A stretch of DNA of 64,000 nucleotides from a virus. Lineage: Duplodnaviria; Caudoviricetes. Shown here piece by piece: positions 3,940 to 58,828 of the stretch. Under the pieces are notes generated by a model, which worked only from the letters and a program-made list of their open reading frames with translations, was not told the DNA's origin and made no database searches. The translations under genes and the position numbers were made by a program. How positions within the stretch are numbered: position 1 is the first letter of the stretch; every line of letters begins with the position of its first letter. The stretch lies in IMG/VR virus record IMGVR_UViG_3300021431_000076, positions 96,001 through 160,000 of that record, one strand, 5' to 3'.

Positions 3940-3961
3940 AAAAAAGAGACCCGAAGGTCTC
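3940..3961 (-). terminator. Intrinsic terminator, same UUCG hairpin as 748-763
   Basis: GAGACC-UUCG-GGUCUC plus U6. Confidence 0.85.
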
Positions 3962-3968
3962 AAAGGAA

Positions 3969-4367
3969 TTATTTGATAGCTTGATTCAACCAAGCTTCAT
4001 ATTTTTCCTCATTATAATCAATAGTCTTTCCATCAATCTGGATTGGTATATCTTGCCCTGTTGCTACCTTGTATGCATCATTTATGAATGTAGCATTTAT
4101 AGCTGCGAATTTTGCTAAATCTGTTACCATTAATGGTACAATGAGTAAACTTGAAATTCCAGCTTTTAATGAGATTACATACAAGAGTAAAGTTTTTTTC
4201 AGATTAAACCTTAAAAGTGGAATAAAGATTAATCCCAAAGGAAACATGATAAGACCTTTGACCATATCTGTCAATATAGCAAAACGACGTTTATTTAAAA
4301 CGTCTTGTTCAGCTTTGATCATTCCATTTTTGATAGCATTGGCATACAGTTCATGACGAATATCCAT
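3969..4367 (-). CDS. Early membrane protein (132 aa, start corrected to MDIRHELY)
   Basis: SD AAAGGAGG before ATG 4367; two hydrophobic segments; own promoter at 4440-4447. Confidence 0.75.
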   Translation of the reverse strand: MDIRHELYANAIKNGMIKAEQDVLNKRRFAILTDMVKGLIMFPLGLIFIPLLRFNLKKTLLLYVISLKAGISSLLIVPLMVTDLAKFAAINATFINDAYKVATGQDIPIQIDGKTIDYNEEKYEAWLNQAIK

Positions 4368-4435
4368 GATAAACATCCTCCTTTTCAATATATACGTCTG
4401 CATCCAATCTCTGATACAGATCTTATGTTTATCAT
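4365..4435 (-). promoter_or_regulatory. Structured 5' leader, copy A
   Basis: The 5' end AUGAUAAACAU pairs over 11 bp with AUGUUUAUCAU, which overlaps the start codon; internal hairpin UCUGUAUC-AGAGAUUG-GAUGCAGA. Confidence 0.7.
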
Positions 4436-4467
4436 AGTTATAATATATAAACAATAAAAAATACTTT

Positions 4468-4499
4468 AACACCACTAGGGATTTCTCCCTAGTGGTGTT
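4468..4499 (-). terminator. Terminator with GAAA tetraloop
   Basis: 14-bp perfect stem; the GGGA-GAAA-TCCC core recurs near 53755 and 55292. Confidence 0.8.
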
Positions 4500-4502
4500 T
4501 GT

Positions 4503-5150
4503 TTATTTTCTCATCATGGCTAATATATCATCAATTCCATTTAATTTCATAAATCTATGCTTAGTATTACCATAGCTATTTTCACATAATACTTGGCAAT
4601 CTTTGATACGATCAGAATCAAATGTAAAATATACTAAATAGAAATGTGATTTATCTATATAAAGTTTATGGTAAGTAGTACAATTACCGTATGGGTCAAA
4701 ACTACTATTACTTGCAGCTTTTTTATGTAAAGAATCTTGTCCTCTTGTTTTGGTTTCATATTCTACATCATAAGAATAAGTAGAACTAGAAGAGGCATAA
4801 TTAGTATTAGAATTATTCTTACCATAACCAGGATTGTTATATGTGTTACTAACTGTCTGTTTATGTTTATTAACAGTCTCAGAATTAAATAAAGAATCAA
4901 GTTTATAATTATCTAAAACAACAGCTTCTTTAGTTCTAGAACGAATAACCTGAATAAGTCTTTTTCTAGCAGTTTCATTTAAAGTATAAAACTTTCTGAA
5001 ATACTGCAACTTCTTCTGATACTTATCTCCTTCAGTAAATGCTGCTTTAATCTGAGCCCATGTTGTAGACCAATTTTCATTTAAAGGTCTTCCTGTATCT
5101 ACTACAGCTTCTGTTAAAGTATATTGTCCATCAATTAATAAATAGCCCAA
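4503..5150 (-). CDS. Hypothetical late protein, possibly an internal head protein
   Basis: TTG start with SD AGAAAGGA; N-terminal LTEA/LNE motifs. Confidence 0.6.
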   Translation of the reverse strand: MGYLLIDGQYTLTEAVVDTGRPLNENWSTTWAQIKAAFTEGDKYQKKLQYFRKFYTLNETARKRLIQVIRSRTKEAVVLDNYKLDSLFNSETVNKHKQTVSNTYNNPGYGKNNSNTNYASSSSTYSYDVEYETKTRGQDSLHKKAASNSSFDPYGNCTTYHKLYIDKSHFYLVYFTFDSDRIKDCQVLCENSYGNTKHRFMKLNGIDDILAMMRK

Positions 5151-36160: not shown

Positions 36161-36235
36161 TGGCCCGCCTACCAAGAATCGAACTTGGATTAAAGGTTTA
36201 GAAGACCCTTGTACTATCCATTATACTATAGGCGG
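36161..36235 (-). tRNA. tRNA-Arg(UCU)
   Basis: Cloverleaf: acceptor CCGCCTA/TAGGCGG, anticodon loop CTTCTAA, T-loop TTCGATT, discriminator G, encoded CCA; late motif at 36247-36259. Confidence 0.95.
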
Positions 36236-43657: not shown

Positions 43658-43801
43658 GGTAATTCCTCCCTAATAATAAAAAACATTTAATTTACCATGA
43701 GTTTAATAGTGATGAGCATTAGCTCATCACTAATCACTCATATGTATAGTATATGTCTAAATTTTAGTTTACTTTTACAAATAACAGTACTAATATATAA
43801 T

Positions 43802-43926
43802 GAAGAATAGGGTTGCCTCCATTAATACGGTTTGCTCATCCGTGGTCATATCCTTTCTGATAATTGATTGTTATACATGCGTCTATTTTCCTATTCTTCT
43901 CCCATAGGTCATGGATGGCCTATGGG
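43802..43926 (+). ncRNA. Candidate trans-acting sRNA with two anti-RBS seeds
   Basis: Late-type motif at 43788-43800; closing stem GAAGAAUAGG/CCUAUUCUUC; seeds contain CCUCC and UCCUUUC; 3' hairpin 43901-43926 has a G-U pair that forms only on the plus strand. Confidence 0.55.
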
Positions 43927-49776: not shown

Positions 49777-49833
49777 GTTGACTCCTCCTTATCTATCATT
49801 ATAATAGTATATGTCTAAAAATCATATTAGAGA

Positions 49834-49868
49834 AAAAAATACAAGGATGTAGAGTCCTTGTATTTTTT
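49834..49868 (-). terminator. Terminator with conserved loop (CUCUACA)
   Basis: 14-bp stem; same core AGGA-TGTAGAG-TCCT as 58323-58353. Confidence 0.8.
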
Positions 49869-49873
49869 CCTGC

Positions 49874-50317
49874 TTATTTGCAGGAATCATCATCTGGATC
49901 ATTCCACTGTACTACCATATATGTGAATGGGTGTTCTTTGTTTGGATTAAATCTAGAAATTGCAAAACCGGCTTGCTCTGTAAGAGCCATAACTGCATCA
50001 CCAAGCACGTCTTTAGTGCATGTGATATCAGGTTCAATTTTGCTTTCTTTCTCTTTAGAAGATGCAACTTGAGCCATCGCCGTCTTGATATCATCGGCTG
50101 TTGCTTTTTCGTCAGATGCTTCTATTTCCTTATATAAAATAGTAGCATTAAACTGAGCTTTGTTCATAGCATCTTCGATCTTAGAAACAATGACATTTAT
50201 AACATTTTGCACATTTTTGTCATGTTTCTCTTGCTTTCTTTTAACAATTTCTGCGTAAACTTTTGCAGAAACCTCAGATGCTTTTGCGGCGTTGATAGAA
50301 ATGTTGAACTTTGTCAT
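49874..50317 (-). CDS. Early hypothetical protein (start corrected to MTKFNIS)
   Basis: SD AGAAAGGAG before ATG 50317; own promoter at 50393-50400. Confidence 0.75.
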   Translation of the reverse strand: MTKFNISINAAKASEVSAKVYAEIVKRKQEKHDKNVQNVINVIVSKIEDAMNKAQFNATILYKEIEASDEKATADDIKTAMAQVASSKEKESKIEPDITCTKDVLGDAVMALTEQAGFAISRFNPNKEHPFTYMVVQWNDPDDDSCK

Positions 50318-50388
50318 GATAAAAGACTCCTTTCTACTTTTAACTGTCTGCATATCAATCTCGTATGCAGATCTTTTGTCTTTATCAC
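50315..50388 (-). promoter_or_regulatory. Structured 5' leader, copy B
   Basis: GUGAUAAAGAC pairs with GUCUUUUAUCAU at the start codon; hairpin UCUGCAUA-CGAGAUUGA-UAUGCAGA. Confidence 0.7.
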
Positions 50389-50466
50389 GGCTATAATATA
50401 CATTTGAAATATAGTATTTTTACAAAAAAGATAGTAAGGGAAAAATCCCTTACTATCCAATTTACA

Positions 50467-58260: not shown

Positions 58261-58322
58261 TTACATTCTCCTCTCTTAATCTACCTACAATAAAATAGTA
58301 TATATCTATAAAAAATATTAAA

Positions 58323-58353
58323 AAAGAAACAGGATGTAGAGTCCTGTTTCTTT
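58323..58353 (-). terminator. Terminator, same family as 49834-49868
   Basis: 12-bp stem with an identical 7-nt loop. Confidence 0.8.
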
Positions 58354-58358
58354 CCTGA

Positions 58359-58739
58359 TCATTTGAGAAATGCATATTTATAATCATTCTCAAATATCTT
58401 TTTTATCTCTTTCTTAAATACCTCCTGTTGGTATTCTGAAAAGGGTTTTGTTTTTACTGTTATTTCCACATCCTTTCTATCTCTTTTTGCTAAGATATAG
58501 AAAGAACTTTGTTCTTCTACGGATTCATGATGAGTAATATTTTCTAATGAAAATTCACCTCCTTCCTTTTCAAACAGATTTAGATCTTCTTTGAGAGCTT
58601 CCATGAACTCTCCGCAACATTGATAAACCATTTTGAAACCTTTATCGGTTTCTACTAAACAAGATCCGCTTTCAGTGAATACCCCTAAATATTCAGACAG
58701 TTCGGACATTGCTGCTTCTTTGGAAATGTTTTTCTTCAT
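58359..58739 (-). CDS. Early hypothetical protein
   Basis: SD AAGGAGGT; N-terminus NISKEAAMSELS resembles NISINAAKASEVS of the 50317 protein. Confidence 0.75.
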   Translation of the reverse strand: MKKNISKEAAMSELSEYLGVFTESGSCLVETDKGFKMVYQCCGEFMEALKEDLNLFEKEGGEFSLENITHHESVEEQSSFYILAKRDRKDVEITVKTKPFSEYQQEVFKKEIKKIFENDYKYAFLK

Positions 58740-58804
58740 GATAAAGTTACCTCCTTATCAAATACATGAACTACATCTTCTCGTGTAGTTCTTTACTTTA
58801 TCAC
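58737..58804 (-). promoter_or_regulatory. Structured 5' leader, copy C
   Basis: GUGAUAAAGU pairs with ACUUUAUCAU at the start codon; hairpin GAACUACA-CGAGAAGA-UGUAGUUC. Confidence 0.7.
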
Positions 58805-58828
58805 AGTTATAATATGCAACTAAAAAAA

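Follow-up and report, generated by a model that had tools for sequence, protein, structure and literature searches.

A covarying 5′ leader RNA on small early gene cassettes of an AR9-like jumbo phage, predicted to pair the transcript start with the bases before the start codon

Three unrelated small genes in a jumbo phage genome carry a common 5′ leader, in which the predicted first bases of the transcript are complementary to the bases that immediately precede the start codon. The leader recurs elsewhere in the genome and in related phages, and its helices are maintained by compensatory change. We are close to certain that it is a real, selected RNA structure. From its sequence context, it would be a structured 5′ leader that acts in cis on short, single-gene early mRNAs transcribed by the virion RNA polymerase. 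The mechanism that we favor, while giving it about an even chance, is sequestration of the 5′ end to protect the mRNA, coupled to an initiation gate that would be opened by the ribosome.

Results

The source phage and its relatives

The window, the whole 64,000-nucleotide stretch analyzed here, comprises bases 96,001–160,000 of a 332,775-bp record from an uncultivated phage (31% G+C, rated complete in IMG/VR); window coordinates are used unless “genome” is stated. The DnaB-like helicase of this phage finds its best matches in Bacillus phages AR9, PBS1 and BpSp, in Staphylococcus jumbo phages and in Listeria phage LPJP1 (~30–37% amino acid identity), and the genome contains two separate Rpb2_6 (beta-like) RNA polymerase (RNAP) loci and one Rpb1_2 (beta′-like) locus. 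Thus, the phage is a distant member of the AR9-like jumbo phages, whose early genes are transcribed by an injected multisubunit RNAP. A protein-based locus search gave only a sister phage (342 kb), with a helicase 95% identical to that of the source phage. Other relatives were found by DNA pattern scans, and blastn searches of cultured phages with the locus DNA gave no match.

Three copies of one leader design

All three sites lie on the minus strand and read through the same parts from 5′ to 3′. The hairpin and T-run of the previous unit are followed by a promoter octamer, six bases, a leader that starts G-A-U-A-A-A-G/C, an 8-bp hairpin (P2), an A/U-rich stretch, a Shine-Dalgarno (SD) sequence GGAG(G), a segment complementary to the first ~9 bases (forming the helix P1), and AUG. 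The first-pass annotation had proposed that a single leader design is shared by three genes with unrelated bodies. Every string that it quoted is present in its place on the minus strand, and the three cargo proteins show no mutual relationship.

In copy A (minus strand), the upstream unit ends in a hairpin and T-run at approximately 4468–4499, just before a promoter core TATATTAT of the AR9 virion-RNAP type (4440–4447). The reported spacing (PMC5312081) places the predicted +1 at the G at 4433. The 5′ arm of P1, predicted transcript positions +1 to +9, covers 4425–4433. P2 occupies 4397–4420 (8 bp, with GAGAUU in the loop) and is followed by CGU. The SD core GGAGG (4377–4381) is unpaired within the loop closed by P1, and the 3′ arm of P1 (4368–4376, positions −9 to −1) constitutes the entire SD–AUG spacer. 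The cargo is a 132-residue orphan ORF (3969–4367, ATG at 4365–4367) that has no homolog in the sister phage and is followed by an intrinsic terminator at ~3940–3961.

Copy B (minus strand) has the core TATATTAT at 50393–50400, a predicted +1 at 50386 and a leader that spans 50315–50386 from +1 to AUG. P1 pairs 50378–50386 with 50318–50327 (one bulged U), P2 pairs 50364–50371 with 50347–50354, and the SD lies at 50327–50331. Its 147-residue orphan ORF (49874–50317, terminator ~49833–49867) has an ortholog in the sister phage with 82% amino acid identity and compensatory changes in P2. Copy C (minus strand) carries the variant core CATATTAT at 58809–58816, with a predicted +1 at 58802 and a leader at 58737–58802 (+1 to AUG). 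Here P1 pairs 58795–58802 with 58740–58747, P2 pairs 58784–58791 with 58768–58775 and is followed by CAUG, and the SD lies at 58750–58754. The cargo, a 126-residue orphan ORF (58359–58739, terminator ~58320–58352), is 62% identical to its ortholog in the sister phage. The terminators of cassettes B and C (49833–49867 and 58320–58352, minus strand) have a common core, AGGACUCUACAUCCU, despite their unrelated cargos, and these terminators are present in the sister phage too.

Early promoters predict a transcript start at the first base of the helix

The early promoters of AR9, mapped by dRNA-seq and primer extension, have the consensus AAATATATATTAT-(6N)-G(+1), and the 6-nt spacing to +1 is also found in phiKZ and phiR1-37 (PMC5312081). 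When the rule TATATTAT-N6-G was run on AR9, it recovered the published transcription start site (TSS) coordinates and UTR lengths (Table S2), for example TSS 66 with a UTR of 33 and TSS 11208 with a UTR of 34. The same promoter core has been reported upstream of 29 genes in Staphylococcus phage MarsHill (MarsHill genome paper). The source genome contains 50 such sites, 38 of them with an SD and an ORF within 200 nt. A promoter of this type precedes all of the leader copies, with core and TSS spacing identical to those of AR9/phiKZ-type virion-RNAP early promoters. Since every leader sits behind a TATATTAT-N6-G site, the RNA should begin at the G of GAUAAAG, by homology to the mapped AR9 promoters.

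This start defines the extent of the helix. P1 pairs +1 with the base just before AUG, and the whole SD–AUG spacer lies inside the helix. The first-pass annotation had extended P1 into the start codon, which it described as clamped. The pairing of the 5′ arm with the spacer stands, but the outermost two pairs would use bases −2 and −1. Most non-family promoters also have R-T at these positions, and one family copy has C at −1; they are probably general promoter positions that are not transcribed. With the predicted +1 at the promoter G, P1 ends at −1. P1 therefore most likely spans +1 to −1 and abuts AUG, with AUG itself outside the helix, and the notion of a clamped start codon is not retained.

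A second promoter-like class, ATATACTAT-N6-G with GTAAA ~15–20 nt upstream, is found in the region of window position 49812 (genome 145812, minus strand) and at ~40 other intergenic sites across the genome. It often lies just downstream of leader cassettes, and no family leader stands behind any of these sites, which may constitute a separate temporal class.

The leader forms a covarying RNA family

The pattern TGATAAA-N30-60-TTTATCATG occurs three times in the window compared to 0.03 expected, a count reached by none of 100 shuffles. It occurs nine times in the whole genome, in which the reversed-pattern control gives zero. These counts indicate that the shared leader is real and not due to chance. 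We scanned the genome and the sister phage with a covariance model built from 15 copies. The source genome contains 10 full and 2 minimal (P1-only) copies, and the sister phage contains 8 (7 full and 1 minimal). At least two copies with flush P1 are present in a more distant, 229-kb relative (39% G+C), and further copies lie on short metagenome contigs.

In an alignment of 24 copies, 90.1% of cells are paired, compared to 32–44% when the partners are slid by 1–3 columns. Both sides changed in 12 of the 17 pairs, and none of 500 shuffles reached the observed covariation score; a 20-copy alignment gives the same picture. The compensatory changes noted at the outset in both helices thus hold against slid and shuffled controls. 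Complementarity is kept in all of at least 10 distinct P1 sequence variants, with 5′ arms of the types GAUAAAG, GAUAAAC, GAUAAGA, GAUGAAU, GAUGAUA, GAUAGAU and GAUAGAG, each with its matching 3′ arm. P1 is anchored at its two ends, by +1 and by AUG, and so cannot be an artifact of the alignment. Two unbiased scans, in which only GAU at +1 to +3, an SD and AUC before AUG were fixed, gave a bimodal distribution of flush-pairing length (background 3, family 7–10). Between orthologous leaders of the source and sister phages, one pair has both sides changed at P1 positions 4 and 7, and three pairs have compensated changes in P2. G·U pairs number 27 and A·C pairs 10, an excess that fits a structure in the sense RNA rather than in DNA or the antisense strand.

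The leader had initially been described as an RNA of unrecognized kind, and comparison with Rfam 15 bears this out, with no family at the gathering threshold. A permissive scan of four copies gave best scores of 17–25 bits against thresholds of 45–100 (E ≥ 0.07), and a scan of the window gave only a tRNA. This tRNA gene, at 36164–36235 (minus strand), is the sole Rfam match in the window.

Predicted fold and conserved loop sequences

For the stretch from +1 to AUG, the predicted folds of copies A and B contain P1 and P2 and leave the SD unpaired (z = −3.3 and −2.1, respectively). The SD and the A/U-rich stretch are single-stranded within the loop enclosed by P1, in line with the original description of an SD left open between the two helices. 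A riboregulator that sequesters the SD, such as a thermometer or a riboswitch platform, was rejected, as both the consensus fold and the MFE folds of copies A and B leave the SD core unpaired. We likewise rejected an upstream ORF in the leader; ATGs in or after P2 yield frames that differ in length, frame and stop among the copies. P1 is A/U-rich and thermodynamically marginal; with 33–63 nt of the ORF added, its predicted occupancy drops to less than 0.3 in roughly half of the 10 scored copies. The mean unpaired probability of the SD in the predicted folds is 0.44–0.87. Copy C has an alternative fold of equal energy in which a second GAUAAGG, beside or overlapping the SD, captures the 3′ arm of P1 and buries part of the SD (58737–58760, minus strand). 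Its ortholog in the sister phage has a weaker, 6-bp version of this pairing. In these models, copy C is possibly a two-state leader.

The P2 loops fall into two types, one containing GAGAUUAG and the other CAUCAUGGUGGUG, and they are conserved while the stems covary. In 14 of the 19 full-length copies, C-A/G-U directly follows P2. This motif is complementary to the invariant AUG, with which it could pair, stacking on the end of P1 in a pseudoknot-like manner. Conserved loops on covarying stems, the motif after P2 and the presence of one leader on many unrelated genes speak for an operator through which a regulon is controlled after transcription. Translation of the early gene set would be switched off or on, much as T4 RegA/RegB do, by a protein or RNA of phage or host that reads the P2 loop, the CAUG that follows P2, or the helix P1. 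As in the T4 system, many unrelated early mRNAs would then carry a common signal in the initiation region. In T4, a known protein reads short single-stranded sequences, whereas the signal in this leader is a helix. No candidate factor was identified, and a search of the genome for RNA complementary to the P2 loops gave only the leaders' own antisense strand and a few 9-mer matches (seven besides the antisense of one leader). We regard such an operator as doubtful, though a serious contender. For the candidate sRNA at window position 43788–43926, a duplex calculation yielded no informative result.

The same region could also be a processing site. In most copies the hairpin is followed by G and an A/U-rich single strand, and an endonuclease acting in the manner of RNase Y might cut there, for example after the G of CAUG. 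Such a cut would remove the 5′ arm, free the spacer and leave the SD near the new 5′ end. The resulting mRNA would resemble the short leaders with a 5′-proximal SD that are the other common early class in the source genome. Since the idea derives purely from sequence and several copies lack the motif or have it in altered form, we consider activation by processing decidedly unlikely.

Leaders belong to exchangeable one-gene cassettes

Each leader heads a one-gene unit that consists of a terminator, promoter, leader, small orphan ORF and terminator. The cargo ORFs encode 69–216 residues, with an intrinsic terminator ~10–40 nt from the stop codon. The 12 cargo proteins of the source genome are mutually unrelated, and searches of Pfam and PHROGs gave nothing informative for them. 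Six of the 12 have no homolog in the sister phage, and homologs of all 12 are absent from AR9 and from the more distant relatives. A gene with 90% amino acid identity between the sister phages carries different leader subtypes, and another orthologous gene is headed by a minimal P1 leader in the source phage and by a short one with a 5′-proximal SD in the sister phage. This suggests that the leader classes are interchangeable. Taken together, the swapped leaders and differing cargos indicate that the leader belongs to a modular, exchangeable cassette. Fixed membership of a regulon would not predict orthologs with different subtypes or without the leader, and a generic mRNA-end device fits interchangeable leaders at least as well as a dedicated regulon, judging from the sequences compared.

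Two further observations were made in the sister phage. The ortholog of the cargo gene at genome 268069 (sister phage ~205607–205660) is in frame only when one A is added to an A7 run, which could reflect a misassembly, a genuine frameshift or slippage. A different kind of repeated early leader, which starts with GAGAGAUAUAGAAGAAAU and contains an inner hairpin, is found at 125309 (minus strand) and 228621 (plus strand) and is distinct from the P1/P2 family.

The arrangement is reminiscent of the T4-type PeSL cassettes, repeated regulatory modules that flank unrelated orphan early genes and are shuffled among close phages (PMC2839356, PMC4122927). Conserved promoter and terminator modules likewise surround non-homologous ORFs that differ between close relatives. 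PeSLs have their stem-loop in the terminator and a sigma-70-type T4 early promoter, whereas here the promoter is TATATTAT-N6-G and a covarying leader RNA stands between promoter and AUG. A T4-type PeSL unit was rejected because the repeated structured part lies downstream of +1, behind this promoter.

The cassette architecture, the absence of half of the cargos from a sister phage with a near-identical helicase, and the highly conserved gene that swapped its leader might alternatively point to a DNA-level or selfish element. Its inverted repeats would serve cassette recombination or mobility in a PeSL-like manner, or the function of the polymerase or promoter. Against this stand the G·U excess and the retention of pairing by compensatory change between arms 45–55 nt apart. 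Recombination via shared sequence would favor identity, not covariation, and transcription reaches the 3′ arm too late to assist promoter escape. We thus find a DNA-level element highly improbable, and a DNA operator or cruciform is disfavored by the same covariation, G·U bias and arm distance.

Paired 5′ ends in the early leaders of other phages

To place the family in a broader context, we compared the 5′ ends of early leaders across phages. Of the 35 early leaders in the source genome, 26 carry P1, a purine tract resembling an SD in the first 12 nt, or a 5′ hairpin, compared to ~11 in shuffles. In the cultured phage MarsHill, the first four nucleotides are paired with a probability above 0.8 in 20 of the 28 early leaders of at least 30 nt, nearly all of these being hairpins flush with +1. 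The mean 5′ pairing probability in MarsHill is 0.80, versus 0.30 in shuffles (Wilcoxon p = 8e-7). The MarsHill hairpins (MW248466.1; for example at 4801, 7160, 19969, 227105 and 265412) are 9–13 bp long and are followed by an A/U-rich tract and an SD. Neither the MarsHill genome paper nor the phiKZ dRNA-seq paper mentions hairpins, stem-loops or other leader structure. The leader classes of the source genome and the MarsHill hairpins point to the 5′ end as a selected feature.

A universal rule of paired 5′ ends was rejected. Non-family long leaders of the source phage, the sister phage and AR9 show paired 5′ ends no more often than shuffles (0.33 against 0.27). None of the 32 scored AR9 early leaders has a flush P1 (maximum 3 bp), nor does any leader of a 248-kb relative with the same promoter. 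Thus, 5′-end pairing is not universal in the clade, and the leader, which has no flush-P1 counterpart in AR9, is an addition specific to its lineage. The AR9 paper mentions a motif in early 5′ UTRs that its authors left unexplained, and describes no such fold (PMC5312081). Long hairpins that begin at or almost at +1 also follow early promoters at genome 44615 (plus strand) and genome 83047, and in the sister phage at 237614 and 247956. The site at genome 44615, outside the window, has no obvious downstream ORF and is a candidate small RNA.

Discussion

Base pairing at the 5′ terminus and ribosome binding close to it stabilize bacterial mRNAs (references listed in PMC3997798; for hbs, PMC5737220). 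In the mechanism that we favor, the paired 5′-triphosphate end would be hidden from an RppH-type pyrophosphohydrolase, from the 5′ exonuclease RNase J and from 5′-sensing endonucleases, so that an untranslated early mRNA would stay stable. A ribosome bound to the exposed SD would have to melt the marginal, A/U-rich P1 before it could occupy the spacer and AUG. In this way P1 would be a mild gate opened by the ribosome, and the 5′ end would become exposed as initiation begins. The 5′ hairpins of MarsHill support this mechanism indirectly. P2 and its conserved loops, together with the C-A/G-U that follows, might make the fold more stable or pair weakly with the start codon in a stacked arrangement.

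The closest parallels are the stabilizers formed by a 5′-terminal stem-loop or a 5′-proximal ribosome-binding site (RBS), namely those of E. coli ompA and papA, B. subtilis aprE and the SP82 polypurine stabilizer. With these the leader shares a helix from the first nucleotide and a strong exposed SD adjacent to it. Base pairing begins at the predicted +1 in every copy, within the 0–2 nt characteristic of stem-loop stabilizers, given a TSS placed by homology. Such stabilizers block decay that depends on the 5′ end (references in PMC3997798). The leader differs from them in that the partner of the 5′ end is the SD–AUG spacer ~55 nt downstream and not the strand of a local hairpin. Its helix also encloses the whole leader and must open for initiation, and stabilization here is a proposal.

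Long-range pairing of a 5′ region is itself known. In hok fold-back inhibition and in the MS2 maturation-gene leader, the 5′ region pairs with a distant segment, limiting nucleases and/or ribosomes. Pairing of the 5′ and 3′ UTRs of B. subtilis hbs similarly lets a 5′ region and a distant segment control nuclease access and/or ribosome entry (PMC5737220). These are single-gene systems in which the 3′ UTR or the SD itself is paired, whereas the present leader spares the SD, ends at −1 and forms a multi-copy family. A hok-type fold-back was rejected, as the 5′ end pairs with the spacer upstream of AUG and the 3′ ends of the mRNAs are ordinary terminators. The leader would be a 5′-UTR element of stability and translation with a new topology, multi-copy, borne on cassettes and tied to virion-RNAP promoters.

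Several considerations weigh against the favored mechanism. P1 is only marginally stable in the predicted folds, copy C has a competing fold, and paired 5′ ends are not universal in the clade. A local hairpin, as in MarsHill, would protect the 5′ end equally well, and protection alone explains neither the choice of the spacer as partner nor the conserved P2 loops and the CAUG after P2. A bolder and unlikely reading combines these features. The triphosphate 5′ end beside AUG, the P2 loops and the C-A/G-U would form a platform read by a phage factor or, in a non-standard way, by the ribosome, giving private translation control of a reshuffled set of early accessory genes (host-takeover or anti-defense). 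Virion-RNAP transcripts of the clade would in that case generally require a paired 5′ end, by long-range pairing here and by local hairpins in MarsHill.

Most early genes of jumbo phages are orphans, and little is understood about how they come to be reliably expressed during the first minutes after infection. The leader is an RNA family that Rfam does not contain; its covariation is unusually clean, and its geometry, with +1 paired to −1, is unusual. Since 5′-terminal pairing dominates the early leaders of MarsHill, a need of virion-RNAP transcripts for an occupied 5′ end can be tested in S. aureus or B. subtilis. The leader also marks mobile early accessory genes, making such genes easy to find in metagenomes.
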